From contig NZ_JBHFNP010000225.1 of the NCBI RefSeq assembly GCF_041929235.1, positions 1 through 58,364 on the forward strand: a DNA stretch of 58,364 bases. Reading direction: 5' to 3'. The stretch's first letter is position 1, and every line of letters starts with the position of its first letter. Source of the DNA: Microseira sp. BLCC-F43 (GTDB lineage Bacteria > Cyanobacteriota > Cyanobacteriia > Cyanobacteriales > Aerosakkonemataceae). The notes beneath the pieces were generated by a model, which made no database searches, was not told where the DNA came from, and was given only the letters and a program-made list of their open reading frames with translations. This document shows, piece after piece, positions 43,505-58,364 of the stretch. The position numbers and the translations under genes are program-made.

Positions 43505-44101
43505 TTACTGTTCCATTGCCGAGCGTCCCTGTTTACCCAGCCGCACAAAAATAAAGTAGCTCAGGTAAAGGACGTAAATTATTAAGCCAACGATGCCGAG
43601 AAAGCCTAAAAACCCGGTGCTGTAACCGGCATGGAAAATTTCCTTGTAGCGCCAAGGTGGTTCTAGCCAAACGCGACAAGATGGTTGTTCGATCGCGCCT
43701 CCACCGAAGGCACAACCGAGGAAGAAGATTTGAGCCACAAAGCCAATCAGATTGTAAACTGTAACCGCCCAACGCCAGGATGTGAGAGCCAGTTTAAGCG
43801 ATCGCTGGGGCAGATCGTTGATTTCTTCGTTGATATCCGCCCAAAACCACAGGGAGGCGGGAATCAGGAGTCGCGCGATCGCCGCCGTGATAAAGCCAAT
43901 CTGCAATGACGCGATCAACAGGTATACCGTAATCAAAAGCAGGCTCGCCACTCGCCAGTAGATCGTTAACAGGCGTTGCACCGCTTCCGATCTTTTATAC
44001 AGTGCCCAGATTAGCAGAGTTAGGGGGATAAAAACTGTGAACAACAACGCCAGCCTATAATCCATCCAAACTAGCGGTTTAAACCAAACATTTTCTTCCA
44101 T
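43505..44101 (-). CDS. Hypothetical integral membrane protein (4-5 predicted TM helices).
   Basis: Hydrophobic segments LALLFTVFIPLTLLIWAL, VASLLLITVYLLIASLQIGFITAAIA, VYNLIGFVAQIFFLGCAFGGG and GFLGFLGIVGLIIYVLYLSYFIF. Confidence 0.45.
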   Translation of the reverse strand: MEENVWFKPLVWMDYRLALLFTVFIPLTLLIWALYKRSEAVQRLLTIYWRVASLLLITVYLLIASLQIGFITAAIARLLIPASLWFWADINEEINDLPQRSLKLALTSWRWAVTVYNLIGFVAQIFFLGCAFGGGAIEQPSCRVWLEPPWRYKEIFHAGYSTGFLGFLGIVGLIIYVLYLSYFIFVRLGKQGRSAMEQ

Positions 44102-44256
44102 AGATTGCTTCGAGCTGCTTTTTTTCTGGCTTTACCCGGTAGATAATTCAATTCCTATTTCAGTCTAATGATTTACTGCCAGGTTTTGAGGCAGCTTCTT
44201 AGGCCCTAATCGCCTCAATCGTAGACAGCGAGAGCTTTTGAGCCTAGTCATTATCT

Positions 44257-44942
44257 TTACCCGGTGCTTAAGCAGGCGGAGAACTTCCGCTCGTGCCATT
44301 TCCAGCGGTAGCCATCCGGGTCAAGTTGCGCGTACGCATCGGGGAAAGCATCACCCAATTTCTTCTTAAGTCCGCTCAACCAAACGGTTGATTTTCCCAC
44401 CCTGGATGCTGTGCCCTCTGCCTGTAAGCCACAAAGGTACGTCGTTAGAGTCAAGCGCTTGTTCCTGGGCAGAGGGTGCGCCGCCTTGGCAGAATTCCAG
44501 CACCAACTGTTTAAACAGCAGTTTCACCAGCGCCAGCAGCGCATCGCGATCGCGCCAAGCGAATCAGCGCGAATTTAACCTGCTGGCGGATGGAACCAGA
44601 CCTAGCAGCTTGAGTTTTTTGCTCGAGACCAGAAGCTATCGTGATACCCATTGAGTTACCCGATGCAATCAACGCGCGTTTCACCGCCGCCAAAGTTTCC
44701 GCACCTGTAGTTTTATCTGCCAGAATCGTTAGCAACCCGTGCATCAACTCATCCCGGTGATTCTTGTCAAGCTCCAGAAACTGCCGCAATATCTTGCCGA
44801 ATTTATTTCTCAAACTCTGGGGCGAGTTGGTTTCTACTTTCATGTGGACGAGTCGCCAAAGCGCTATCCTGCAAGCACCCGAACCGCTAATAAATTCTCC
44901 CTTTTTCTCTCCCTCACTCCTTTGATTTGGAGCCATCCCCAT
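44257..44942 (-). pseudogene. Possible frameshifted gene. Two adjacent minus-strand ORFs lie in different frames. Function unknown.
   Basis: ORFs 44511..44942 and 44257..44454 are separated by 56 bp with a frame change. No motif recognised. Confidence 0.2.
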
Positions 44943-45365
44943 TGCAGAATGAAACTTACGACACGAGATATGAGCTAGGGTTGGTTTACCGCTTTTTGTC
45001 CCTTGACGCTTAATTTTGATTATCGGTTGTCCATCAGAACCTAAAAACTGCTCAACCGGAAAAATCTGAACTAACCAGATTGCTTGGGTTAGTCATCCTG
45101 CGGTGAGATTCAAACCTTTCCCCTGTTCGACACACAACGAGACTATTAACTCAAGTTGCTAGTTATAAACTTTGGCGTTGCTAATTGCTAATTGCTAATC
45201 TTGGATTTTTAGCAATCTCGCCATTAGCCTCGTGACCCAGGCGGTCGCCTGGTCACGCCATTAGCCGCTCCCAGAGAGATAACTAGCAACTTGAGTTATT
45301 ATCAGGTGGTCAGCGTTGGCTGGTCAAATCGCCGTCGGGTTTATGGCTGCTTGATTCATATAGAC

Positions 45366-45455
45366 CAGGACTGACGCAAACACCAAAGTTTCTCTGAAAA
45401 ATCGTCGGGAAAGGAAACTAGAGATCTAGGTCGAAACTTTGGTGATAGGAACGCC
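45366..45455. repeat. CACCAAAGTTTC...GAAACTTTGGTG inverted-repeat (MITE-like) element.
   Basis: caccaaagtttctctgaaaaatcgtcgggaaaggaaactagagatctaggtcgaaactttggtgatagg. Related copies lie at 6590..6720, 15925..16025, 17880..17990 and 24975..25060 (inverted). Confidence 0.55.
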
Positions 45456-45692
45456 CTTGCGTAAGTCCTGTAGACATTAAAGGCGACAAAATCAAAGATG
45501 CAACATGATGGGACAGAAACGGGTGTGGCGAATCAGTTAGTTGAGCTGGGAGTTCCAAAACAAGATATCATGCTGGGGTATCATGCTCCCTATGCCCGGA
45601 AGCACACAGAGTTTGCCGTCGGCTGAGTCATCCAATTGGTCAATCCCACTATACCCTACAAATGTAAAACGCTTAATTTAGAAGGAAAAACC

Positions 45693-46451
45693 ATGACCAA
45701 AATTATTTCAATTCACTCCTATCGAGGTGGTACGGGCAAATCTAACACCACTGCTAATTTAGCCGCCACTGCTGCCTTATTAGGCAAGCGAGTCGCCTTA
45801 GTCGATACCGACATTCAATCTCCGGGTATCAACGTCCTTTTTGGCTTAAAAGACGACCAAATTAAGCGTACCCTCAACGATTATTTGTGGGGACGCTGCG
45901 AAATCAAAGACGCCGCCTATGATGTCAGCCACGTGCTTCAAGGTGCAGCGGGAAAAGAAGGCGGTAGCATTCATCTGATTCCCTCCAGCATGAAAAGCGA
46001 CGACATTGCCAAAGTTCTGAGTGAAGGCTACGATGTAGAGTTACTCCAAGAAGGGTTATACCAACTCAATGACCTGCTAAATTTAGACTATCTCTTCATC
46101 GATACGCACCCCGGAATTAACGAAGAAACCCTACTCTCAGTCGGCATTTCCGATACCTTAATTATTATCCTCCGTCCCGACCAACAAGACTATTTAGGAA
46201 CGGCAGTAGTAATTGAAGTTGCAGAAAATCTAGAAGTTCCCCAAATGTTGTTAGTGGTGAATAAAGTATTGCCAGACTTTGACCTCAAAGCGCTGCGGCA
46301 GAAAGTAGAAGAAACCTACAACAAACCCGTTGCAGGAATCATGCCGCTTTCCACTGAAATGATCCGCTTAGGCAGTCAGGGATTGTTTTCCTTGCAGCAT
46401 CCCAACCACGAGTTAACCGCTGAATATAAAGAGATTGTTTCTCATATTTAA
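45693..46451 (+). CDS. MinD/ParA-family P-loop ATPase.
   Basis: The deviant Walker A is SYRGGTGKSNTTANLAA, with the lysine at the position typical of MinD/ParA/Mrp proteins. Length ~250 aa. The start is set at MTKIISIH, which has the RBS GAAGGAAAAACC. Confidence 0.65.
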   Translation: MTKIISIHSYRGGTGKSNTTANLAATAALLGKRVALVDTDIQSPGINVLFGLKDDQIKRTLNDYLWGRCEIKDAAYDVSHVLQGAAGKEGGSIHLIPSSMKSDDIAKVLSEGYDVELLQEGLYQLNDLLNLDYLFIDTHPGINEETLLSVGISDTLIIILRPDQQDYLGTAVVIEVAENLEVPQMLLVVNKVLPDFDLKALRQKVEETYNKPVAGIMPLSTEMIRLGSQGLFSLQHPNHELTAEYKEIVSHI

Positions 46452-46480
46452 CCTTAGTAAAACCCGCCCCTAAGACCTCA

Positions 46481-46515
46481 GGCGTAGTTAGATACCCGAC
46501 TTATTAGAGAAGTCG
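46481..46515 (+). terminator. Hairpin downstream of the MinD-like gene.
   Basis: gatacccgacttattagagaagtcgggtatc is an inverted repeat 30 bp after the stop codon. Confidence 0.45.
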
Positions 46516-46553
46516 GGTATCTGGGTGTTATGTTTAGGACACGATCTAATTGA

Positions 46554-46964
46554 TTGATGATTATGAAAATTTTTGCTCTCAGACTCAAGCCCGAACAAGA
46601 TTTGAAAAAGAACCTGAAAAACTTTGTTGCTACTAACAAGATTCAGGCAGGATTTATCTTAACCGCTGTCGGCAGCCTCGCACAAGCAACAATTAGATTT
46701 GCTAACCAGAATGAAAGTCAAGTATTGTCAGGTAAATTCGAGATAGTTTCTCTCGTTGGCACTGTTTCAATAAACGGAATTCACTTACATATTTCCATCT
46801 CGGATTCTGAGGGGATAACCAGGGGAGGGCATTTAGATGATGGTTGTCTTATTTATACAACAGCTGAGATTGTAATCGGAGAAAACGAAACTCTAACTTT
46901 TTTGAGAGAGTTAGACGAGCAAACTGGCTATCAAGAATTAGAAATTATAACTAGAAATGAATAA
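46554..46964 (+). CDS. PPC/DUF296-domain protein (PCC DNA-binding-like domain).
   Basis: FEIVSLVGTVS..HLHISISD..G.TRGGHLDDGCLIYTTAEIVIGE fits the conserved PPC (DUF296) pattern found in plant AT-hook proteins and in prokaryotic homologs. Confidence 0.5.
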   Translation: MMIMKIFALRLKPEQDLKKNLKNFVATNKIQAGFILTAVGSLAQATIRFANQNESQVLSGKFEIVSLVGTVSINGIHLHISISDSEGITRGGHLDDGCLIYTTAEIVIGENETLTFLRELDEQTGYQELEIITRNE

Positions 46965-47257
46965 CTATAGATTCTAGAATCCCGGTTTCTTTGACAGGAC
47001 TTACGCAACCACAAGATGCGTACGCATCACCACCTAATAAACCATGTCTGCCAGCAGGTCACTACTAAAAATCTGATTTTTTCAAGTAGTCACCCCAGTT
47101 GCTAGTTATAAATTTAGAAGTTATAAAAGGCTTCGTCTTCGGTGTTTTTACGGAACGAATTTTGTTAAGCCAATCAAACATTCAGCAGTAGTTCTGAGGA
47201 TTTGGTTATCAGCCAAGGCTATCGTCATAACTAGCAACTTATCCATAAGTTACTTCT

Positions 47258-48433
47258 ATGGCGCTTAATTTAGCAAATCTTTGTTTGCTACCACCCCAGG
47301 ATTTACTTAGCAGTTACCAATTGAGTCAGCCCGTCGCCATTGGGGTAAATCAGGCACTAACGCAATTTCAACAGGCTTTATCTGGCGAGGAATCTTTGCA
47401 TGGGAATACTATCAATGCCGCCTTGCAGCAACTCACCCCAGTGGAAGTCATTCCCCTGGCGGAAGAATTCTCCACTGGCACTAACCTCAAGTGCCAGCAA
47501 GTTCACGAGTTTGACCGCTATATGGAACTCCAACATGTTAAAACTAAAGAACCTGCTAAGTTAATAGTTGCGAGCCTGTTGAGAGCTTATTTAGGTTTTT
47601 TAGAACTCAGTACAAGTCTGAGTTTTAATCCTAACAAAGCCTTGGTAAAATCTGGATTTACAACTTATGCTGTTCTCTTAAGAAGAGCGTTCGGACTACA
47701 GGAATATAATTGCGATGATAATATCAACGATAGCCATAATTATAATAGCAAACCAAACCTCACTCTTTCTCCGCTTCAGATATGGAAGAAAGGACATTGG
47801 GTATTTTTAGTATTTAGCCAAGGGTTAATTTTGAGTTTAAATCGCTTGGTTGATGCCATTGGTAACGACCAACTCGACCAAGCAAAACTTGAGTTAGAAA
47901 CTGCTGCTGAACTGATGTACGCATCGGGAGCAGCAATGAAATTAACTGGGAACTTCACTAGAGAGAAATATGAAAGTGAAATTCGCCCTACTATGATTGC
48001 AGGTAATCCCCAGTCGTTGGTAGAGTCAGAGAATTTAAGTGGGTTAATGATGTGGGATCACGATTATCTCATCAATGTCATTTGCAAGCAGAAGCTACTG
48101 CGAATCATGAAAACTTTACCCAGCATCCTCGCAGCCGAACACGAAAAATTTGTCCGATCTTATCAATGCGGCATATCTGATGGACACAAGAGTATTTGTG
48201 CGGAATTTGGAGGGGGTGAAATAGGGTCTTTGATAGCCGCTTCCGAAAGTAGTGCAGCTATCAAAACTTTGGAAAAATTTGAAAATAGCAGAGTCAAACT
48301 ACTCGACCCTACGGGTCGAATAAAGGGTGGCTGTCCGGTAAATATGACTCTAAGAGCAAAGGCTTCTCTGGAAATGATTCAATCTTGGAAGAAAAGAAAA
48401 AAAACTCAACACCATCACCATCCCGAATCCTGA
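47258..48433 (+). CDS. Hypothetical protein (391 aa) with a C-terminal KKRKKTQHHHHPES tail. First gene of the candidate terpene cluster.
   Basis: Clean ORF, co-directional and closely spaced with the next three genes. No motif recognised. Confidence 0.4.
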   Translation: MALNLANLCLLPPQDLLSSYQLSQPVAIGVNQALTQFQQALSGEESLHGNTINAALQQLTPVEVIPLAEEFSTGTNLKCQQVHEFDRYMELQHVKTKEPAKLIVASLLRAYLGFLELSTSLSFNPNKALVKSGFTTYAVLLRRAFGLQEYNCDDNINDSHNYNSKPNLTLSPLQIWKKGHWVFLVFSQGLILSLNRLVDAIGNDQLDQAKLELETAAELMYASGAAMKLTGNFTREKYESEIRPTMIAGNPQSLVESENLSGLMMWDHDYLINVICKQKLLRIMKTLPSILAAEHEKFVRSYQCGISDGHKSICAEFGGGEIGSLIAASESSAAIKTLEKFENSRVKLLDPTGRIKGGCPVNMTLRAKASLEMIQSWKKRKKTQHHHHPES

Positions 48434-48516
48434 ATCTTCTTTAGAGTTTACAAGTATAAAATGACTCTGGGACTCAAAGGCTGATAATCTGTGTATAAAT
48501 TCACCACGGCAAACCA

Positions 48517-49890
48517 ATGACATTAGAAAAAGAAAGCTTGGGATTACTTCAAGAAGCACTAGCACGACTAGAAGAAGGTTTTCACAACCTACCAAAATGC
48601 TCGCGCTCTCCTAACCTAGATGCTATGAGAACCGTGCTGTTGGAAGTCGCAGAACGGATGCAGGATAATTATCCCTACCACCATCCCCTCTACGCTGGGC
48701 AAATGCTCAAACCTCCCACAGAAATTGCCCGTCTTGCTTATACTTTATCCCTTTGGATCAATCCCAACAATCACGCCCAAGATGGTGGACGGGCAAGTTC
48801 GGCAATGGAGAAAGAAGCAGTTGCAGAAATTGCCAAAATGTTCGGTTGGGAAACTCATTTAGGACATCTGACCAGTGGCGGCACAATGGCGAATTTAGAG
48901 GGATTATGGGTGGCAGGAAATTTACAACCAAACAAAAAAATAGTCGCCTCTAATCAAGCACACTACACCCATGAAAGAATTTGCGGCGTGCTTCGCCTTC
49001 CTTTCCAATCCGTTCCTTGCGACAGTCGCGCCCGGATGGATGTATCAGCGCTGAAAAAACTGCTACAAGAAGGTGATATTGGCACGGTTGTTGTGACGAT
49101 GGGGACGACGGGAATGGGTGCTGTCGATCCCCTACCAGAAATTCTCGCACTTCAGGCTGAATATGAGTTCCGCATCCATGCCGATACCGCCTACGGCGGT
49201 TACTTTACTTTGGCAGATAATCTTGATGCCGAAACAAGAGCCGCTTTTGATTGTCTCAAACAAGTTGATTCCATTGTTGTCGATCCGCACAAACATGGAC
49301 TCCAACCTTATGGCTGTGGCTGCATTCTTTTCAAAGATCCCTCTCTTGGGAAGCTTTATCAACATAATTCGCCCTACACTTACTTTAGCTCTGAGGAATT
49401 GCATTTAGGTGAAATTAGCCTCGAATGTTCCAGACCGGGTTCATCTGCGGTAGCACTCTGGGCAACTCAACGTTTACTACCTACAATTCCAGGCGGTGAG
49501 TTTGCTGCTTATTTGAGTAAGTCGCGAACAGCAGCACTTACTTTTTTTGAGAAACTGCAAAATGATTCGCGATTTATAGTGCCTTTTACGCCGCAATTGG
49601 ACATTGTTGTTTGGGCTGTAAAATCTCAGAGTGCAAGCGAATCTTCACGACTGGCAAAGGATATTTTTCAAGTGGCAGGACAGGAAAATCTCCATCTAGC
49701 TACGGCGAATGTATCAAAAGAACTATTTTTAGAGACTGGGGCAGGAATTAATTGGGATATTGACTCTATTACCTGTCTGCGGTCTTGTCTGATGAAACCC
49801 GAACATCTGGATTGGATAGACAGTATTTGGCAGACGCTTGACTTAGTAACAACAAAGGTAATGAGAGAGGCTGTGTCAATAGCTACTTAG
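48517..49890 (+). CDS. PLP-dependent amino-acid decarboxylase (group II, fold-type I).
   Basis: HPLYAGQMLKPP resembles the HP.Y.gqm block of group II decarboxylases. The putative PLP-lysine region DSIVVDPHKHGLQPYGCGCILF, and a length of 457 aa. Confidence 0.65.
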   Translation: MTLEKESLGLLQEALARLEEGFHNLPKCSRSPNLDAMRTVLLEVAERMQDNYPYHHPLYAGQMLKPPTEIARLAYTLSLWINPNNHAQDGGRASSAMEKEAVAEIAKMFGWETHLGHLTSGGTMANLEGLWVAGNLQPNKKIVASNQAHYTHERICGVLRLPFQSVPCDSRARMDVSALKKLLQEGDIGTVVVTMGTTGMGAVDPLPEILALQAEYEFRIHADTAYGGYFTLADNLDAETRAAFDCLKQVDSIVVDPHKHGLQPYGCGCILFKDPSLGKLYQHNSPYTYFSSEELHLGEISLECSRPGSSAVALWATQRLLPTIPGGEFAAYLSKSRTAALTFFEKLQNDSRFIVPFTPQLDIVVWAVKSQSASESSRLAKDIFQVAGQENLHLATANVSKELFLETGAGINWDIDSITCLRSCLMKPEHLDWIDSIWQTLDLVTTKVMREAVSIAT

Positions 49891-49965
49891 GAGCATGGAT
49901 TAAGTAACATCCAAAACTTGTAGGTTGGGTTTCGTCAATTAAGTTAACTAGGGGAGGGATTTTCA

Positions 49966-50919
49966 ATGGCTCGAATTCGACGCTCAGACATTCCCGAATT
50001 TTATTGCCCGATAGAAGTAAGATTGAACGAGCATACTGATAAGGCTGAGAAAAACAGCTGGGAATGGGTGCGTAAATTTGGCCTTGTTCCAGAGGGAGGG
50101 GTCGAGTATCGAGCTTTGCAAGCAGAGAAAGCAGCTTGGTTGGTCGGTTACACTAATCCCGATGCTGCGGCAGATGACCTTTATTTGATAAGTGACTTCA
50201 TGACTTGGATATGCATTTATGACGATCTGTCTGACGCTGCAAATTTAGGGAAACATCCGGATAAATTATCTATTTTGCATCAACGCTTGGTGGATGTATT
50301 AAACGGTGCTGATGTCAGCGGTCAAGATGATAACTTGACTCAAGCATTACAAGACATTTGCCAACGGTTAATCCAAAGAACAAGTTGTGAATGGGTTGAG
50401 CGTTTTGCCAGGGATGTAGAACAGCAACTCCAAGGATTTGTATGGGAATCTACCAATCGTTTAGCGGGGATTACGCCAGATTTGTCTAGCTATGTAAAAT
50501 TACGTCCCTACTCGCTAACCATATTTCCCAACTTGGATTTAACTTGGGTTTCCCAGGATATTCCAGCGAATGCTAAATTCTTGAGACACATTTATGTCCA
50601 ACAGATGACCGTGATGGTATGCAATCATATCGGTTGGACAAATGACGTATTGGGAATCAATAGAGAGTTGCGGGAGGAAAATCCTCATAACATAGTCCTT
50701 GTACTACAGCAAGAATATAACCTCTCGCTGCAAGATGCTGTCAAACGAGCGGTGGAAATGTGCAATGCTGAGGTCAAAGCATTTCTTAACTTAGAATCGC
50801 GTCTGCCCTCGTTTGGTGAGACGGAAGATATAAGTCTGAAACGCTACATTGACGGACTGCGTTCCTGGATACGGGGTCATTTAAATTGGTGCTCTGAAAC
50901 TGCACGCTATCCTTTTTAA
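49966..50919 (+). CDS. Class I terpene synthase (bacterial terpene cyclase, sesquiterpene-synthase-like).
   Basis: Aspartate-rich DDLSD at about residues 86-90 (ICIYDDLSDAAN). An NSE/DTE triad NDVLGINRE roughly 140 residues later. A conserved Arg in LRPYS, and a C-terminal RY pair (ETARYPF). At 317 aa it is a single-domain enzyme. Confidence 0.75.
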   Translation: MARIRRSDIPEFYCPIEVRLNEHTDKAEKNSWEWVRKFGLVPEGGVEYRALQAEKAAWLVGYTNPDAAADDLYLISDFMTWICIYDDLSDAANLGKHPDKLSILHQRLVDVLNGADVSGQDDNLTQALQDICQRLIQRTSCEWVERFARDVEQQLQGFVWESTNRLAGITPDLSSYVKLRPYSLTIFPNLDLTWVSQDIPANAKFLRHIYVQQMTVMVCNHIGWTNDVLGINRELREENPHNIVLVLQQEYNLSLQDAVKRAVEMCNAEVKAFLNLESRLPSFGETEDISLKRYIDGLRSWIRGHLNWCSETARYPF

Positions 50920-50996
50920 GGGCACGAAGACTCTCCCCGTCCGATGAGCGATCGCACTAAACCGGGAGGTGGTAAAAAAATACTGACAAATCTTGC

Positions 50997-51755
50997 TTGA
51001 ATCGTCGGGTGGCACAAGATGCGATCCGCAAGTTGCGGACGGTTTTGCGATCGCACCAAGTTCGCTTCATCCAACTGGCAAGCAGACCAGAACACCTCAT
51101 AACCAAATCTATGCAATTTCTCGATAAAAACAACGAAATTATATTCCAAACGATGAACCATAGCGATATTGAAGAGACTGCTATTTGTATTTCCCAGGTT
51201 TTTTCAAGTTTTGAACCCCTCGCCAAAGCCCTAAAAATTTCCTTGAATGAGATGTATCGCTTGGCTTTACCTGTTTGTGAGAAAACGGCAGATGAAGCAA
51301 TTTCGATAATTGCTAAAGCTCGAAACACAAAAGAGGTAGTGGGTTTCATTATTTCCGAAAATTTTATGACAATTCATCCAGACCATCTGGGTATTGATAA
51401 TAAGTTTGAAGCACTTTTTTCTTGGCTGTCAGAACTGGAAGAAAAATACCGAAGCCGTAATCCGATTAAAGCTGGACAGGTACTGCATATTTTTATGCTG
51501 GGAGTCCAAGAGAAATACACTAAGAGACATATTGCCACAACCTTAGTGAAAGAAAACTTGAACTTAGCTAAACACCATAACTTTGAAATTGCTATTGCTG
51601 AGGCTACCGGAGTTGCTTCTCAGCACATATTTCGCAACCTTGGGTTTACTGAAGAGTTTGCCATTGAATACAAGTCATACAAGTTCAAGGGGAAAAACAT
51701 TTTTAGTTCTATTGAGCATCCTTCTAGTTGTCTATTGATGTCCTCTCCAATTTGA
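50997..51755 (+). CDS. GNAT-family N-acetyltransferase.
   Basis: An acetyl-CoA-binding-like region VLHIFMLGVQEKYTKRHIATTLV and a C-terminal FRNLGFTEEF. The true start may be an internal Met at 51111 or 51153. Confidence 0.55.
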   Translation: MNRRVAQDAIRKLRTVLRSHQVRFIQLASRPEHLITKSMQFLDKNNEIIFQTMNHSDIEETAICISQVFSSFEPLAKALKISLNEMYRLALPVCEKTADEAISIIAKARNTKEVVGFIISENFMTIHPDHLGIDNKFEALFSWLSELEEKYRSRNPIKAGQVLHIFMLGVQEKYTKRHIATTLVKENLNLAKHHNFEIAIAEATGVASQHIFRNLGFTEEFAIEYKSYKFKGKNIFSSIEHPSSCLLMSSPI

Positions 51756-51891
51756 AGAGTTTTTCTTCGGTTAAGTGTTTCATTTAGGGTAAACACTTCT
51801 AAATGAAGTTGACAAAAATATCTATTTATGTATCTGTTGAAAGAGTATTGACACTCCCCCGCTTAAAAGACGGGGGATTCTGTACTCAACG

Positions 51892-52599
51892 TCAGAGTTT
51901 GCTCGCTTCAGGGTTGCTCCAACTAGCGTAGTGACTCCAACTCCGGAGCGCGTTACTTTGGGGATGCCCTCCCCTAGCTTGCAATGCAAGATTTAAAATG
52001 TTTATTGCCGCGTTTTCATCTCTATTTAACCTGCATCCACACTTACAGATGTGGGTACGAGTTGATAGAGACTTTTTCACAATTGCCCCACAATTACTAC
52101 AGTTTTGACTGGTATATCGTGGGTTAACCGCAACAGCTTCTCGGTTAAACTTGCAAGCATTATACTCAACCCATTGTCTAAATTGCGTCCATCCAGCATC
52201 GCTATCCCCCCAACCCCCCTTATTAAGGGGGGCGAAGGGGGGATGGTTTTTGACCATATTGCGAACACTTAAATCTTCATAAGCTACTAAGTCGTTAGAC
52301 TTGACTACGCAACGCGCCAATCTTTTGGCGTGTTCATTACGCTGCCTACTTACTCTTAAGTGTTTCTTAGCAAATCGCTTTCTTGCATGAGATCGCCCAT
52401 TTTTACCCTTTTCTTTCTTGTAGATGCGACGCTGAGCATGTTTAATAGACTGTTCAGCTTTCTTTAGAAAGCGTGGATTTTCTTCCTGATGTCCGTTGGA
52501 ATCAGTATAGAAATACTCAAAGAGCAAAATGACGGGGGTCCCAAGTTCCCGTATACTGATACTCGGATTCTTTATAGAGAATGCCAATATTATCTTCAT
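51892..52599 (-). pseudogene. tnpB: IS200/IS605-family TnpB (OrfB), C-terminal fragment lacking the N-terminal domain.
   Basis: A RuvC-like region and the zinc finger CSNCGAIVKKSLSTRTHICKCGCRLNRDENAAINI. Only ~235 aa are present. Its 5' end overlaps the end of the 676-aa gene. Confidence 0.65.
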
Positions 52600-54547
52600 T
52601 GGTCAAAGGAACTGATTCTAAAATTCCTATTCCTTGGCCTCCATCTGTCGAATTTTTCAGATATTTATAACTAACATAGGCGCGATACAAAAGACTTGGG
52701 TAACGCATATCCATGGGTAGCTCAGCTTGTATTAGGTCATGTCGTTCCTCCTCTAGGCTGCTTAATTCTTTTCTGGTAATATCTAGCAGCAGGGACATAT
52801 TTTTATCCTGAAGATTAACCATAAAGATATGGCCTATATTGTCACATAAGACTATGCGATTAGGCATCGCTCCTTCAAATCGTACCCGTTGCGGTTCAGC
52901 AGCAGGAAAAAAGGCTCTCGCGGCTCTGGTTTGTCCAATTGTGAAACCATCATCATTGAAAACTATATGCCAACACCCTGAAGGACGCAACTCAGTAGAA
53001 CGCTCCCCAATTCCTATTCTGTCGATGTTAAAAATCCACCTTTCATCAGGATCGTTGGAAGCTTTGATTTTAATATTGATATCCTGCTCGCTTAAGACTA
53101 CAGCGTAAGTTCCACCATTACCTTCCAATCTGTAAGTTAAATTGGACTTTTCAATATCTGCAAGCTGAGGAATTACAACAGTTCGTCTGGCTTTGTCTAA
53201 CTTTACCGTGACAGTAGTAGGTCTATATTGACATCGGAATTGATCGATGGCAAAGTCTGAGGTTGCCCAGTAATCATAGTAAAACTTCTCATAAAAATGA
53301 GATTCAATTGTGCGGAGTGCATTTATACCAGGGCTGCTAAAATTCTCTTGCCAAAGTGGTGATACTGTGCCGTGCTTATAATCGAAAACCATCTCGATAT
53401 CTCTGGGCAAGACAATCACATCTACATTGGTATTCTGTAATTGTACCGTTTGAGGGCAACCAAGTCCTTCCCGAACACTAAGAAGTGGTAGAGTTTTCGC
53501 TCTACTATTACCTACCCAACCCACATCGGGACCGGCCGAGAAACTATCAGTATTGTTGACTTTAGTGTGAGCCGCTCCGGGGTGATCTGGATTAACTTGA
53601 TAGAGATATTGACTACCAAAGGTCAGCCGTCGTCCTAGGAGGTCAATTTCGGTGATAACTGCCCCTCCTTTAGGTTTCAAGGCTGATTGAATGCCCTGAT
53701 ATTGATCGGCTGCTTGGTAAGTCATACCCCTGCTACCATCAGAGTTAGCAGCGTAGCCCTGAGCAATTGTACCAAAGGGTTCAGCTACCTTTTCTGCATT
53801 CTCAGTTCTTTGGGCATATAGTGCTACTAAGGTGGGAATTCCTGCCGCTAACCCAGCAAGGGGGACTGCGATCGCTCCCAAGATGGAAGCTGCGGTAGAA
53901 GCGCCGATAATTCCTAACCCCAGGGAAAGCAAAGAAGTGGCAGTTGCTGTAACATCAAAGACCAAAGTTGTAGTAATCGAAGCTCGTTCAGGAGTGGATG
54001 AAGTCTTAGAAAGGACAATGCCATCTAAGATGACATTTCCTATACTCAAAAGAACGCCCAAGCCTTCTGTGAGAGAGGTTTTCACCACAGTGGTGACTAA
54101 GCTTTCGGAAACTTCCTTGGCTACAGCGCCGCTATTTCTTAAAGCCGGTATGATCTCAGTGATTACTTGAGATACTTCTGTGACCACACCATGGCCGTAT
54201 TGGGTTAAGTTCCAATAGCTTTGTACTCCCACTGCTAGATCTAAATCTGGGTTATCAGATTTCTCATACAACTCTCCCTCTGCAACCCAATTGATAACGG
54301 TTTTAACTAAGTCCGCTTTATTAGCGCCGACCCCAACCCCAGCAGATACACTACTACTGGCAGTTTTAGAGGTTACCTGACCTGTGAGGGAATCAACTTG
54401 AAACATTTCTCCCAGATTTTGGGCTTGTTCGTTGAAAAAGGTGCGGAAATTCTCAAAAGTTGGATCATTGGTTTCAATCCAGCGAGTCTCATCTAGATTG
54501 TTCTTGTTAATGAACTGAACACGGTATTGACCTGCTGTAGCTTCCAC
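52517..54547 (-). CDS. Large hypothetical membrane-associated protein (676 aa as called). It likely had an N-terminal extension that is now interrupted by an in-frame TAA.
   Basis: A central Gly/Ala-rich hydrophobic block LLSLGLGIIGASTAASILGAIAVPLAGLAAGIPTLVALYA. The called GTG start has no RBS. A strong RBS plus ATG lies at 54697, and 22 codons later an in-frame TAA at 54629..54631. Confidence 0.5.
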   Translation of the reverse strand: MEATAGQYRVQFINKNNLDETRWIETNDPTFENFRTFFNEQAQNLGEMFQVDSLTGQVTSKTASSSVSAGVGVGANKADLVKTVINWVAEGELYEKSDNPDLDLAVGVQSYWNLTQYGHGVVTEVSQVITEIIPALRNSGAVAKEVSESLVTTVVKTSLTEGLGVLLSIGNVILDGIVLSKTSSTPERASITTTLVFDVTATATSLLSLGLGIIGASTAASILGAIAVPLAGLAAGIPTLVALYAQRTENAEKVAEPFGTIAQGYAANSDGSRGMTYQAADQYQGIQSALKPKGGAVITEIDLLGRRLTFGSQYLYQVNPDHPGAAHTKVNNTDSFSAGPDVGWVGNSRAKTLPLLSVREGLGCPQTVQLQNTNVDVIVLPRDIEMVFDYKHGTVSPLWQENFSSPGINALRTIESHFYEKFYYDYWATSDFAIDQFRCQYRPTTVTVKLDKARRTVVIPQLADIEKSNLTYRLEGNGGTYAVVLSEQDINIKIKASNDPDERWIFNIDRIGIGERSTELRPSGCWHIVFNDDGFTIGQTRAARAFFPAAEPQRVRFEGAMPNRIVLCDNIGHIFMVNLQDKNMSLLLDITRKELSSLEEERHDLIQAELPMDMRYPSLLYRAYVSYKYLKNSTDGGQGIGILESVPLTNEDNIGILYKESEYQYTGTWDPRHFAL

Positions 54548-55192
54548 ATTTTGAATTATCGGTACCCAGTTAGAGTCAAGTTGAGCCTGCTGGTTAAGGG
54601 TTTTGACCGCTTGGGTCCAACGCTCAGTTTAGGTATCTAGGATTTTTTGAACCAAAAAACTACGACCAAATCCAGACATAGCAGAGTTTTGAACCATTTT
54701 ATATCTTCCTCTCTAAATTAAACATTACTTACGCCAAGTCTCTATCTGTAGCGTGTCATCTGGTAACCGCGCCATCTCCTGCGGCGAGAGCAGTTGGTAG
54801 GGAATGCTATAGCAGTGCGCTCTCGCGTATTTACGTACGAATGTTCTAGTAGCCTGCTGATAAAGCTTCTATTTCTAATGTGTAAACACACCAGCGCTCA
54901 TTGCTATAACTTGGTCAAGTGCAGCACGGGATATATCTACCAAATCTCTTCGAGTGTAGCACAGATCTAAAGAGCCGCTTTCAACGTAGTGCGTCTTGCC
55001 CAGCGTATTCCACAACTTCTCCCAGCCAATGAACGCTGCATCGACCATCCGAGAGTAACCAGGTGAAGCGCTGTGAGCATAAAGGTTTCAGAAATACAAT
55101 CTATGTCCACTCACGGCTTAATATAGGGAGTAATTACTAGAACCACAAAAACAAGGACATTCCCCGAATAAGTAGTACATCGATCGCGACAT

Positions 55193-56338
55193 ATGTTATC
55201 ATCGGCATCACTCGAATTACCCGCGACTGTCGTGTACACTGCCCTCAAGACCAAGTTAAAACTCACCCCTGCCCAAGCGGTGTTAATGGCAAAACACGCG
55301 GGGATTGCTCGGTTTACTTTTAACTGGGGACTCTTAACATGGATCGCGCTCTATTCTGAGGGGTTGAAGCCCAATACTTTGGTGTTGAAAAAGTTTTTTA
55401 ACAATCACGTGAAGCCTGTCTATCCTTGGATGAAAGAACCAGGCATTTGTCAAAAAGTGACCCAATATGCCTTCGAGCATCTGGGTAGGGCATTCGGTAA
55501 CTTTTTTTCGGGGAAAGCAAGTTATCCAAAGTTCAAGAAAAAGGGTCAGCACGATAGTTTTACCATCGATGCTAGTGGCAGACCGCTCGCCGTGGGCGGT
55601 ACGAGATTGAAGTTACCCACAATTGGCTGGGTATCAACTTATGAAGGTTTGCCCCACGTCACCACCAAAAAATTTACCATTTCACAAGCATCTGGCAACT
55701 GGTATATCAGTTTTACCTATGAAATAGAGCCTGAATTTACGTCTAAATCCCGTGACTTTATAGGTGTAGATTTGGGAGTAAAACAGCTAGCTACCCTGTC
55801 GAGCGGCATGGTAATTGCCAACCCCCAGGCTTTGAAGAAAGCACGGTCGCTTTTAGCGAGATTGCAGCGCCAGTTGCAGCGCAAACAAAAAGGTAGCAAA
55901 AGATATCACCGACAAAAGTTAAGGTTAGCAGCAGCTCATCAACGAGTAAAAAACATCAGACTCGATGCTACTCATAAAGCTACGACTTATATATGCAAAA
56001 ACCACGCCGTTGTTGTAGCAATTGAGGACTTAAATGTATCGGGAATGATGGCTAACCATAAACTAGCGGGTGCTGTTGCGGATGCCAATTTTTACGAATT
56101 CAGGCGACAAATTGAGTACAAAGCACAGCGCTACGGTTCCTGTGTCGTTTTAGTAGATCGGTGGTATCCATCAACTCAGTTATGTTCTAACTGCAAAGGA
56201 CAGCAGCCGATGTCTCTTAGCGATAGGATTTATGAGTGTTCGGCTTGTGGATTTGTAGCCGAGAGAGATTTCAATGCTGCTGTGAATTTAGAACAATATG
56301 CTCGGAGGGCTAAGCCGAGCCTGGACACAGAGGGTTAA
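55193..56338 (+). CDS. tnpB: IS200/IS605-family transposase accessory protein TnpB (RNA-guided endonuclease type), apparently intact.
   Basis: 381 aa. RuvC-I region FIGVDLGVKQLATLSSG, RuvC-II AIEDLNVSGM, zinc finger CSNCKGQQPMSLSDRIYECSACGFVAERDFNAAVN. Confidence 0.8.
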   Translation: MLSSASLELPATVVYTALKTKLKLTPAQAVLMAKHAGIARFTFNWGLLTWIALYSEGLKPNTLVLKKFFNNHVKPVYPWMKEPGICQKVTQYAFEHLGRAFGNFFSGKASYPKFKKKGQHDSFTIDASGRPLAVGGTRLKLPTIGWVSTYEGLPHVTTKKFTISQASGNWYISFTYEIEPEFTSKSRDFIGVDLGVKQLATLSSGMVIANPQALKKARSLLARLQRQLQRKQKGSKRYHRQKLRLAAAHQRVKNIRLDATHKATTYICKNHAVVVAIEDLNVSGMMANHKLAGAVADANFYEFRRQIEYKAQRYGSCVVLVDRWYPSTQLCSNCKGQQPMSLSDRIYECSACGFVAERDFNAAVNLEQYARRAKPSLDTEG

Positions 56339-56438
56339 TTGCGCCGTCGCTCCCTGTTGAAGTGTCAACTAATGTCGGGCATTGTCCGGGTTTTAGATAG
56401 CAGTACCTCACGGTAGCGAAACGATTAATCTCCCCCGT

Positions 56439-56636
56439 TTGTTTATGTCTAATATTGCCTTACGGGGAGGCGTTGCACCTGCCCGTGCGTATATTCCCGA
56501 ACTGCTGGCTGATGTAGTGGCTGGTAAAATTGACCCCTCACCCGTTCTCGATATGACCGTCGAACTCGATGGTGTGCCAGGGGGGTATGCCGCGATGGAT
56601 AGCCGAGAAGCGATTAAAGTAATGGTGCGACCGTGA
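56439..56636 (+). pseudogene. C-terminal remnant of a zinc-dependent alcohol dehydrogenase / formaldehyde-dehydrogenase-like gene.
   Basis: RGGVAPARAYIPELLADVVAGKIDPSPVLDMTVELDGVPGGYAAMDSREAIKVMVRP matches the C-terminal tail of MDR-family Zn-ADHs. The rest of the gene is absent. Confidence 0.45.
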
Positions 56637-56771
56637 ACTACCTACGCTCCAGCAAGCTGTGAGTGTAGGCTTCTAGCATTCCTGAGAACTACTAGAACTT
56701 CCTCCCTTGGTACTATTGGTAGTAGAGTCAGTTAATACAGGATTCCCTCAAAGGCATCCCCCCTGCCCCCC

Positions 56772-58037
56772 TTAATCAGGGGGGTTGGGGGGATGTCCCA
56801 GCCCCACACGCTTTAAGTTGATAGCGGCATTAATGTCGCGATTCACCCAAAGACGCTCTTTTTCATGCCAATACTCGCGGATATCGCAATCAGTGAACAT
56901 AAATTCATCACGATACGCGAGTAATTGAGATGTGTATGCAGGTTTGGCTGCTATTGCCCTAGCTCCAGCTTTTGAAGCTATGTATTCTAGGATTGTGAAA
57001 AACTGTCCAAAGGCGGCATCATTCCAAGACTTGTTCAAGCCTGATTTGGCACTTTGCCCGTTTGGAAGATAAGTCCCGTTTTCGTCCCGCCCAGCTTTGT
57101 TTCTCTTTGACAGAGCTTTTAAGTTTAAATCTTCACGTACAAAAACTTTTTTATTTGTCCGAACTAGGTCTTTCCTCGCTCTGGCAATACGTTGATGTTC
57201 TCGCGCTTCCCTCAAGGCTAGCTTACGTCTTGCCTTACTGCCTTTTTTCTTGGCTGATTTACGATTAGAAACTAAGGCTCGCCGCTTTTCAGACTTTCTG
57301 AAAGACTTTAGCGCTGGTAGTTTGGTATTTTCTGAAGTTGCCAAATAATCGTCTTCATGTAACACCGCATCCAATCCCAGAGTGTTATCCCAAGTGGGCG
57401 TTATCTCATCTGGCGTGAAAACTGGTACGTTTGGATCTTCGAGACAAATTGTGATGTACCAGCCATCAGCTTTCAAGGTTAACAAAGCATTTTTTAGTAC
57501 AAAACCATTAGGTAAAGGTCGATGTCAACGTACTTTTATCCAACCTTTTAGCTTTGAAATTGACAAGAATAACCAATCTTTTTCAATACGCTCAACGGTA
57601 ATGGCTTGACCTTCAATCCTCATGGTGCGGTAACGTGCCGCATTCTTGAAACGTGGCTTCCCACTACGATTACCATTGCTATCCCCTTTAATAAAGCGAG
57701 AGAAAGCCAAATCTACGCGGAGAGAAACATCTTGCAATGTCTGAGAGGGGACACGAGTAAAATCCAACAACTCTCCAGAATGACCCACTTTAAACAAGTC
57801 TTCTTTAAGAGTAGGAAGTTGTTTCTTTTGAGAGTATAAATCAGGATTTTCGCGTAGTTGAGGCAACGGACAACTGACTATTGAACAAGCATCAATGCGA
57901 CTGCGGTTGTTCTCCCACCAATCAAATCTGTCTCCTAGTTGCTTGTTGTACCAGTACTGGCAAATCCTCAACCAAGTATTTAGTTCTAGTTTTTGATTGG
58001 TATTTGGAACTGCCCGATACTGAGAGTTAAGCAACAT
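56772..58037 (-). pseudogene. tnpB: IS200/IS605-family TnpB split by a frameshift. The N-terminal part is 57525..58037 and the C-terminal part is 56772..57485.
   Basis: The N-terminal ORF has the OrfB N-domain (RICQYWYNKQLGDRFDWWENN). The C-terminal ORF has the RuvC and Zn-ribbon tail (AAINLKRVGLGHPP). The two are in different frames and about 40 bp apart. Confidence 0.65.
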
Positions 58038-58364
58038 TTTTAATCACCTCCTTTGTGACAACTATGCTAACATAAACGTAACGGCGTTGTACTGGCATAT
58101 GAAAAATCAAACATTGAACTTGCGAATATCAGAACGCAGATTAATAATTACGGTTATATTCAGCCTGGAAAGATAAGACTATGACTCAAATACTCGAAGA
58201 TTTCATTGACTCATTACCAACCCCAGAAATTGGTAATCAAGTCGCTGTCCCCACTCCCGCGTTGACTGACGGTCAACATAGGTCGGGGGACGCAACCTGA
58301 TTACCCCAAAATTCATCCCACACTGCCTTCGGTCAGATGTGGGGCTTCTTTTGGTTTGGGCTAA

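Follow-up and report, generated by a model that had tools for sequence, protein, structure and literature searches.

Which product is made by a gene cluster in which a terpene synthase lies among enzymes of amine metabolism? This question is raised by four adjacent genes of the cyanobacterium Microseira sp. BLCC-F43, located on contig NZ_JBHFNP010000225.1 (assembly GCF_041929235.1), the full 58,364 nucleotides of which were analysed and are called the window in the following. The genes encode, in this order, a protein of 391 amino acids (aa), a pyridoxal phosphate (PLP)-dependent decarboxylase, a class I terpene synthase (TS) and an acetyltransferase of the GNAT family (Table 1). In a preliminary description made from the letters of the DNA, all four had been taken for one compact candidate biosynthetic cluster. 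Comparison with other cyanobacterial loci leads to a different arrangement: the first, second and fourth genes are a conserved three-gene cyanobacterial unit, and the TS gene is a later insertion into the spacer between the decarboxylase and GNAT genes, found in Microseira only among the loci compared. Judging from the families to which the encoded enzymes belong, it seems fairly probable that the three genes make N-acetyldopamine from tyrosine and that the inserted TS makes a separate sesquiterpene.

The four open reading frames (ORFs) share the forward strand and are closely spaced, as had been described, with 83, 75 and 77 nt between them as first called; the spacer between the TS and GNAT genes measures 194 nt once the GNAT start is set at the ATG at position 51114 (see below). 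A terminator scan revealed no terminator-like site in the forward-strand spacers, and promoter-like sites were rarer than in shuffled sequences. The TS gene is probably co-transcribed with the amine genes.

Table 1. Positions of the features discussed; those without a locus number refer to the window, and L numbers denote loci of the comparison.
Feature	Position	Strand	Basis or context
SfmD-type covalent-heme aromatic hydroxylase, 391 aa (predicted)	47258..48433	+	PDB 6vdp match, heme motif, fold
Group II PLP-dependent decarboxylase, 457 aa, tyrosine/L-DOPA-decarboxylase-like	48517..49890	+	PF00282, PDB and NCBIfam relatives, DPHK motif
Insertion of ~1.17 kb relative to the TS-less loci L005 and L014	49938..51104		blastn
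Class I terpene synthase (TS), 317 aa	49966..50919	+	PF19086, PDB relatives, motifs
Insect-type arylalkylamine N-acetyltransferase-like GNAT, 213 aa, corrected start	51114..51755	+	PF00583, phmmer, Foldseek
~155-bp element with inverted termini	47087..47240		Repeat matches, conserved position
IS605-associated replacement, 4.55 kb, strain-specific	51848..56401		megablast against L032/L033, Pfam
Zn-dependent alcohol dehydrogenase, C-terminal remnant, 79 aa	56397..56633	+	tblastn against the L004 enzyme
SULT1-type sulfotransferase	L004:11301-12161, L005:~13363-14229, L007:14872-15738		Between GNAT and alcohol dehydrogenase genes
Ebony-like synthetase (Scytonema hofmannii PCC 7110)	L001:14212-17137		Adenylation domain, carrier domain and Ebony-matching C-domain
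EF-hand protein, 179 aa, preceding TS orthologs outside Microseira	L019:7231-7770, L017:606-1145, L020:7431-7970, L035:3358-3897		Partner of TS in four contexts

A conserved three-gene unit and an inserted terpene synthase

The comparison comprised 14 loci outside Microseira that carry a homolog of the first gene (hereafter the SfmD-like gene, after its closest relative), two loci with a decarboxylase and a GNAT gene (L023 and L024) and the loci of Microseira itself. A decarboxylase gene directly follows the SfmD-like gene in 11 of the 14 loci outside Microseira (the contig of L011 ends inside the decarboxylase gene), and in Tolypothrix, the twelfth, both genes are clustered divergently. They are unlinked in two of the 14 loci, both of which are deletion remnants. 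An ortholog of the GNAT with 70-85% identity is present in six of the 14 loci and in the two further loci that pair it with the decarboxylase. The partner encoded beside the SfmD-like gene of the Oscillatoria clade is a non-orthologous enzyme of 514 aa, the best PDB match of which is a DOPA decarboxylase (7xin, 1.4e-75); the predicted decarboxylation chemistry is kept despite the gene replacement. Altogether, the linkage of hydroxylase, decarboxylase and N-acyltransferase genes recurs in at least six genera and in varied contexts, including ParA, the alkane-biosynthesis genes ADO/AAR and Lpx genes, and it has outlasted the exchange of two of its three functions for non-orthologous genes.

Further genes accompany the unit in part of the genomes. 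A gene for a Zn-dependent alcohol dehydrogenase (ADH) follows the GNAT gene in L004, L005, L007, L014 and L032-34. In three genomes, a sulfotransferase of the SULT1 type, i.e., the cytosolic phenol/monoamine type, is encoded between GNAT and ADH on the reverse strand of L004, L005 and L007, which suggests, as far as sequence relationship goes, O-sulfation of a phenolic or catecholic product in those genomes. This sulfotransferase is absent from the lineage of the window.

The third gene shows all the features of a class I terpene cyclase for which it had been singled out, and passes the Pfam profile PF19086 (Terpene_syn_C_2; 1.7e-39, 136.1 bits against a cutoff of 23.7). The motifs DDLSD (aa 86-90; 50221-50235), NDVLGINRE (aa 226-234; 50641-50667) and the C-terminal RY (aa 314-315; 50905-50910) are, together with R180, invariant or nearly so in ten TS orthologs. 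The best PDB matches are (+)-T-muurolol synthase (5e-44) and 10-epi-cubebol synthase (3.4e-36), and the best NCBIfam matches, isoafricanol synthase (151 vs 500 bits) and delta-cadinene synthase (138.6 vs 400 bits), stay below their product-specific cutoffs; by its relatives it is probably a sesquiterpene cyclase. The gene is intact and under purifying selection, with a ratio of nonsynonymous to synonymous substitution rates (dN/dS) of 0.27-0.48.

The boundaries of the insertion can be read from loci that lack TS. DNA homology (blastn) to L005 and L014 ends at positions 49937 and 49874 of the window, respectively, and restarts at 51105 and 51102. The inserted DNA consists of the TS gene, 27 bp of its native upstream sequence including a good Shine-Dalgarno sequence, and some 185 bp of additional DNA on the 3' side. 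At the locus L017, TS is paired with an EF-hand protein gene and is 89% identical at the nucleotide level. Homology to L017 is confined to 49939-50919, from 27 bp upstream of the start to the stop codon. A hairpin in the spacer of L005 has lost its right arm in the window, where it was removed by the insertion. Among the genomes compared, TS accompanies the amine genes only in Microseira, i.e., in the window, in M. wollei NIES-4236 (L004) and in L032-34. The insertion is common to NIES-4236 (93% protein identity) and to contigs 98.7% identical to the window, and is therefore fixed in the genus.

Outside Microseira, TS orthologs of 58-82% identity were found in Moorena producens and three metagenomic contexts. 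In all four of these unrelated contexts the TS gene is directly preceded by a gene for an EF-hand protein of 179 aa, and no hydroxylase, decarboxylase or GNAT gene of the amine unit lies nearby. EF-hand protein and TS thus form a two-gene module, the first gene of which was left behind on transfer into the Microseira operon. Metagenome scans for TS orthologs with single-sequence patterns returned no matches, and those with alignment patterns returned only relatives with 25-57% identity, too distant to bear on the context of the orthologs.

These observations bear directly on the proposal that all four genes belong to a single pathway leading to a terpene-amine (meroterpenoid) hybrid, in which the TS product, or a TS acting as prenyltransferase, would be joined to the amine. 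Such a reading would fit the co-directional, tightly spaced genes with no terminator-like site found between them, the Shine-Dalgarno sequence that arrived with TS and the intact TS inside the operon of every Microseira genome sampled (window, NIES-4236, L032-34). Nevertheless, neither the 14 loci outside Microseira that carry an SfmD-like gene nor the two decarboxylase and GNAT loci contain TS, which is a demonstrable insertion and the orthologs of which keep an EF-hand partner and no amine genes. In addition, the enzyme carries canonical cyclase motifs, its nearest characterised relatives are ordinary sesquiterpene cyclases, and no enzyme for the coupling, for instance a prenyltransferase of the ABBA or UbiA type, is encoded at the locus. 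A hybrid product, being without comparative support because TS is scattered and was shown to be an insertion, is regarded as very unlikely. The preliminary description had itself named scattering of the genes in related genomes as evidence against a unit; this is what was found for TS, and it counts against the four-gene cluster. The comparison favours the third of the outcomes it had considered, a decorated amine made alongside a volatile terpene.

Predicted enzymes of the amine pathway

The 391-aa protein had been called unidentifiable, which does not hold, as sequence, motif and fold all point to SfmD. A phmmer search against the PDB yielded 6vdp (SfmD, 3-methyl-L-tyrosine peroxygenase/hydroxylase; E 8.1e-13), and the Pfam family PF27188 (SfmD_perox) is annotated on all 31 homologs of the protein in a large protein database. 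Pfam and NCBIfam scans of the protein itself gave no match; in the case of Pfam this is explained by the age of the release scanned, which the PF27188 model postdates. SfmD binds its heme through the motif HxnHxxxC, with His274 and His313 as axial ligands and Cys317 attached by one thioether bond on which activity depends, and it also converts L-tyrosine into L-DOPA (PMC8179489). H268, H310 and C314 of the Microseira protein (codons 48059-48061, 48185-48187 and 48197-48199) align with H274, H313 and C317 of SfmD and are invariant in an alignment of 14 cyanobacterial sequences; the motif is present with n = 41, compared with 37-40 in published homologs (PMC8179489). The AlphaFold2 (AF2) model (pLDDT 80.2, pTM 0.82) has 6vdq, 6vdz and 6vdp as its top three Foldseek matches (probability 1.0, target-normalised TM-score 0.67-0.69). 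The next matches are to IDO1 and are weak (E > 0.1), as is expected within the superfamily of heme-dependent aromatic oxygenases. Accordingly, the protein is a predicted SfmD-type covalent-heme aromatic hydroxylase, and so identified it would supply the missing first step, the hydroxylation of the tyrosine ring. The family is rare, with about 504 cluster representatives at E <= 0.001 among 1.84 billion proteins. The His-rich tail mentioned in the preliminary description exists (HHHH) but is lineage-specific; a role as metal site was rejected, since the tail is unconserved and disordered in the AF2 model.

That the partners of this protein include a PLP decarboxylase and an acetyltransferase was confirmed by Pfam. 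The decarboxylase matches PF00282 (4.8e-28, 98.4 bits against a cutoff of 27) and carries the PLP-lysine motif DPHK at residues 256-259 (49282-49293). Its best NCBIfam matches are MfnA (TIGR03812, 2.6e-41) and the Enterococcus-type tyrosine decarboxylase (TIGR03811, 3.5e-34), and its best PDB matches the tyrosine decarboxylases of Lactobacillus and Enterococcus (5hsi, 1e-32; 7cwx, 8.5e-30). It falls below both equivalog cutoffs, with 141.7 vs 299.4 bits for MfnA and 118.2 vs 905.3 bits for the Enterococcus type. These relatives place the enzyme nearest to bacterial tyrosine/L-DOPA decarboxylases, and the genomic context suggests tyrosine or DOPA as substrate.

The fourth gene encodes a GNAT (PF00583, 1.7e-6, 28.7 bits against a cutoff of 20.7), as had been recognised; its start had been placed too far upstream, in an ORF of 252 aa at 50997-51755. 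The true start is the ATG at 51114, because the orthologs, with their 214-216 aa, begin to align only at residue 34-40 of the long ORF, the 39-codon leader has a dN/dS of 1.3, and DNA homology to TS-less loci is resumed only at about 51102. In phmmer searches of the PDB, the protein matched Aedes aaNAT2 (4fd5, 1.9e-8), a dopamine N-acetyltransferase-like protein (6v3t, 3.5e-5) and, weakly, the C-terminal domain of Ebony. For the AF2 model (pLDDT 84.5), the top 23 Foldseek matches all belong to one subfamily of insect arylalkylamine N-acetyltransferases (iAANATs), Ebony C-domains and A654L, with TM-scores of 0.76-0.86 before a drop to ~0.55 for generic GNATs. The members matched comprise Drosophila dopamine N-acetyltransferase, Tribolium AANAT, the Ebony C-domain, aaNAT2, agmatine N-acetyltransferase and the viral polyamine acetyltransferase A654L. 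In the DEPLN motif of the insect enzymes, Glu serves as general base and binds the amine, and iAANATs take many arylalkylamines (PMC6070697). In the cyanobacterial enzyme, the corresponding residue is E34 (213-aa numbering) within an FEPL motif, invariant in 14 orthologs; its FEPLAKA aligns with DEPLNKA of Aedes aaNAT2, and Asp and Asn of the motif are not kept. By sequence and predicted fold, the GNAT is thus assigned to the insect arylalkylamine/dopamine N-acetyltransferase subfamily.

In other genomes, a different acylating enzyme is found. Five loci (L001, L006, L008, L009 and L010) carry, directly downstream of the SfmD-like and decarboxylase genes, a gene for an Ebony-like protein of 814-852 aa with AMP-binding and PP-binding domains and the phosphopantetheine site GGDSL. 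Its C-terminal 228 aa match the amine-selecting domain of Drosophila Ebony (6dym, 8.6e-5, residues 6-207), and a DEPLN-type glutamate is present in these C-domains as well. Genes for the aspartate decarboxylase PanD and for an exporter of the MFS or MatE type adjoin the synthetase genes. Both types occur together in Microcoleus sp. Aus8_D2, which holds a GNAT-type locus (L007, with an in-frame TGA in its SfmD-like gene) and an Ebony-type locus (L009). From their domain composition, these proteins may be bacterial homologs of Ebony that make N-beta-alanyl amines; the searchable literature yielded no relevant paper on bacterial Ebony homologs. Read against the GrsA ruler, the adenylation domain shows the pocket VDW..SL.DK, which may be of the beta-alanine type, the shift at V235/D236 being a putative signature of beta-amino acids; the beta-alanine code VDWVISLADK was not found in the searchable literature, and the comparison is taken as a lead only.

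A number of loci show signs of decay. In-frame stops interrupt the SfmD-like genes of L006 (two) and L007. Recoding to selenocysteine was considered and rejected for these stops, as the stops, TGA and TAA, differ in position and are better explained by pseudogenes or by errors of assembly. At L016:9968-11891, the N-terminus of SfmD runs in frame into the tail of an Ebony-like C-domain and is followed by PanD and GNAT, and at L015:8116-9595, all that is left of SfmD are its C-terminal 146 aa, beside GNAT.

The enzymes of the window can be joined to a route whose substrates, order of steps and product we infer from sequence. The SfmD-type heme enzyme would convert L-tyrosine to L-DOPA with H2O2, or O2 and a reductant; the tyrosine-decarboxylase-like PLP enzyme would release CO2 from L-DOPA to give dopamine; and the insect-type AANAT-like GNAT would acetylate dopamine with acetyl-CoA to N-acetyldopamine (NADA). 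In other genomes, the last step would be swapped for an Ebony-like synthetase consisting of adenylation, carrier and AANAT-fold domains (A-T-AANAT) that, together with PanD, would yield N-beta-alanyl-dopamine (NBAD), and some loci add a phenol-type sulfotransferase, an ADH or an exporter. In the lineage of Microseira, a bare TS gene would have been copied from an EF-hand/TS pair into the decarboxylase-GNAT spacer, and its product would cyclise farnesyl diphosphate to a separate sesquiterpene, independent of the amine.

The same three-gene logic might apply to another aromatic amine. The product could be N-acetyltyramine, if the heme enzyme acted late or on another substrate, or N-acetylserotonin, if tryptophan were converted via hydroxytryptophan and serotonin. 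Decarboxylase and GNAT pairs without any hydroxylase exist (L023, L024), the decarboxylase lies below every equivalog cutoff, iAANATs accept various amines, and the heme-dependent aromatic oxygenases, with IDO1 among the weak secondary fold matches, include enzymes acting on tryptophan. Nevertheless, the sole significant relative in sequence and fold is SfmD, a hydroxylase of the tyrosine ring with the same covalent-heme motif, the replacement decarboxylase of Oscillatoria resembles DOPA/tyrosine decarboxylases, and the SULT1-like sulfotransferases that accompany the cluster in three genomes are of the phenol/catecholamine type. Another amine is therefore conceivable, with a rather low probability.

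Several observations weigh against the route from tyrosine to N-acetyldopamine and the independent role of TS. The substrates are deduced from homologous, characterised enzymes with which the identity is 17-30%. The spacing of the heme histidines, 41, lies beyond the range of SfmD homologs, and the decarboxylase scores so far below the MfnA cutoff that its substrate is suggested, not established. The iAANAT-like subfamily also includes polyamine and agmatine acetyltransferases, and A654L is the top match to the predicted fold of the GNAT. For the SfmD-like gene and the GNAT gene, dN/dS between two Microseira strains is 0.46-0.57 and thus fairly relaxed. Moreover, hydroxylation is dispensable in some lineages, since L023 and L024 are free of a hydroxylase gene and the SfmD-like genes of L006 and L007 bear stops; the product there may be N-acetyltyramine. 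Finally, TS has stably remained in the operon in all Microseira genomes seen, which could point to a functional link.

Flanking repeats and IS605-associated DNA

The cluster had been described as lying between inverted repeats resembling miniature inverted-repeat transposable elements (MITEs) and a graveyard of IS605 elements. The repeats are real, as AGTTGCTAGTTATAA has four matches where 0.04 are expected by chance (45154-45168 / 45277-45291 and 47097-47111 / 47225-47239); the first pair had been placed slightly off, and the repeats do not flank the cluster. They belong to two elements of ~155 bp, one at 45144-45301 and one directly upstream of the cluster (Table 1), in which the invariant inverted termini AAGTTGCTAGTTAT ... 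ATAACTAGCAACTT enclose dissimilar interiors. A function as cluster boundaries was rejected: what the two elements enclose are the ParA-like and PCC genes, and the second has a conserved place ahead of the SfmD-like gene in other genomes. It ends 18 nt before the SfmD-like start, occupies the matching position in M. wollei (L004) and UBA11372 (L005), and has an RNA fold z-score of -2.56. Accordingly, it is possibly a regulatory structure of the 5' region and not a mobile MITE. A search against Rfam at the gathering threshold gave zero matches for positions 44000-58364.

The IS605 graveyard downstream is present as described, with TnpB-like ORFs at 51892-52599, 55193-56338 and 56772-58037. According to megablast against L032/L033 (98.7% identical DNA of the same species), position 51847 of the window joins position 13699 of L032, and 56402 joins 14547. 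The DNA in between, which is specific to BLCC-F43, holds a TnpB fragment (51892-52599, reverse strand), an ORF with a TcdA/TcdB pore domain (52517-54547, reverse strand) and a TnpB gene (55193-56338, forward strand), and has taken the place of the 5' ~800 bp of the downstream ADH gene. An intact ADH of 344 aa is kept in L032 (13747-14781), and the remnant in the window shows 95% identity to residues 276-354 of the ADH of L004 (tblastn). IS605-associated DNA has thus destroyed the ADH gene in BLCC-F43.

Some further features of this region were recorded. The ORF at 52517-54547 encodes 676 aa with the TcdA/TcdB pore-forming (translocation) domain PF12920 (5.2e-84), is devoid of recognisable enzymatic or receptor-binding domains and, going by this domain content, is probably a fragment of a toxin gene. 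The TnpB at 56772-58037 (reverse strand) is split into an HTH_OrfB_IS605 part (57525-58037) and an OrfB/TNB part (56772-57485); being shared with the near-identical contigs, it is an older remnant of the IS605 family. A segment of 1.7 kb (L032 14783-16502) is missing at about position 56635 of the window.

Upstream of the cluster, the window carries genes for phosphoglucomutase, DUF7734 and DUF3177, all of them conserved cyanobacterial genes, as well as a ParA/MinD-like ATPase gene and a PCC-domain gene. The latter (PCC or DUF296; 46554-46964) separates the ParA-like gene from the cluster in BLCC-F43 and its nearest relatives; in M. wollei NIES-4236 it is not found at the matching position. 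Synonymous divergence (dS) between the window (45636-51755) and L004 amounts to 0.06 for ParA, 0.20 for the SfmD-like gene, 0.20 for the decarboxylase gene, 0.07 for TS and 0.14 for GNAT, and this unevenness between two Microseira strains suggests a recombination mosaic. In the first two genes, UBA11372 resembles the window more closely than NIES-4236 does, and in the GNAT gene less closely.

Such surroundings raise the question of whether the genes constitute a biosynthetic pathway at all, or are instead a set for amine detoxification or catabolism, or unrelated neighbours with a common history in accessory DNA. The debris of IS605 elements next to the locus, the decay of several loci by in-frame stops and deletions and the uneven dS along the cluster, indicative of recombination, would all be consistent with this. 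Against it stand the linkage of three functions, kept in at least six genera and several chromosomal contexts despite the replacement of two of them, and the exporters and dedicated beta-alanine supply (PanD) that accompany the Ebony-like branch. The absence of any biosynthetic pathway is therefore judged highly improbable.

Relation to known systems and significance

Seen individually, all enzymes of the unit belong to known families, and their combination across filamentous cyanobacteria is undescribed in the searchable literature, in which we found no description of a hydroxylase, decarboxylase and AANAT/Ebony combination and none of N-acetyldopamine in cyanobacteria. The 391-aa protein shares the family PF27188, the fold and the H...HxxxC thioether motif with SfmD of saframycin biosynthesis and with LmbB2 and Orf13 of lincomycin and anthramycin biosynthesis. 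It differs from SfmD in sequence (~19% identity over the structural alignment), in the spacing of the histidines and in being cyanobacterial rather than actinobacterial. Its partners are a decarboxylase and an amine N-acyltransferase, whereas SfmD, LmbB2 and Orf13 work together with nonribosomal peptide synthetase machinery for tetrahydroisoquinolines or pyrrolobenzodiazepines.

The decarboxylase has the PF00282 fold and the DPHK motif in common with the tyrosine decarboxylases (TyrDC) of Lactobacillus brevis and Enterococcus faecalis and with archaeal MfnA; compared with the ~620 aa of TyrDC it is much shorter, and it matches in three separate stretches. TS, in turn, resembles the cyclases of the cadinane/cubebane group ((+)-T-muurolol, 10-epi-cubebol, delta-cadinene and isoafricanol) in its single alpha-domain, the DDxxD, NSE and RY motifs and the pyrophosphate-sensor arginine. 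It aligns with them over its full length (E 1e-36 to 1e-44) yet stays below every product-specific cutoff. Its clade is cyanobacterial and uncharacterised and normally paired with the EF-hand protein, in contrast to the partnerless TS within the amine operon of the window.

The closest parallel to the predicted sequence of reactions is the tanning of insect cuticle, in which tyrosine hydroxylase, DOPA decarboxylase and dopamine N-acetyltransferase lead to NADA, and Ebony together with an aspartate decarboxylase leads to NBAD. The GNAT of the window shares the subfamily and the catalytic glutamate of Drosophila dopamine N-acetyltransferase. Likewise, the alternative loci repeat the arrangement of Ebony, i.e., adenylation and carrier domains joined to an AANAT-fold domain, beside a beta-alanine-forming aspartate decarboxylase. 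PanD is a pyruvoyl-dependent enzyme, and the insect counterpart Black is a PLP enzyme. There are further differences, as the insect hydroxylase depends on pterin and iron and the cyanobacterial one is a predicted heme enzyme, and as most cyanobacterial loci encode a decarboxylase of the bacterial TyrDC/MfnA type. Moreover, the cyanobacterial genes are organised in operons, sometimes with exporters or a sulfotransferase.

A more far-reaching interpretation, which we regard as speculative and rather unlikely, is that filamentous cyanobacteria own a counterpart of the NADA/NBAD system, the products of which would be exported for the oxidative cross-linking or pigmentation of sheaths or would serve as a secreted catechol signal or chelator, with TS wired into the transcription unit in Microseira. 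Within this interpretation, the Ebony-type synthetases may be the first bacterial ones.

If the proposed pathway is true, a route to N-acyl catecholamines would exist in at least six cyanobacterial genera, which would imply either convergence or ancient sharing with the chemistry of insect cuticle tanning and the presence of Ebony-like synthetases outside animals. It would also provide a second physiological setting for the rare SfmD family of covalent-heme enzymes. The system would gain further interest if its products proved to be N-acyl catecholamines that are exported and serve a structural or signalling purpose. Besides, the locus illustrates that a terpene synthase gene found within an operon may be a passenger that arrived recently, and that a rule-based cluster call would here present an amine pathway wrongly as a terpene cluster.

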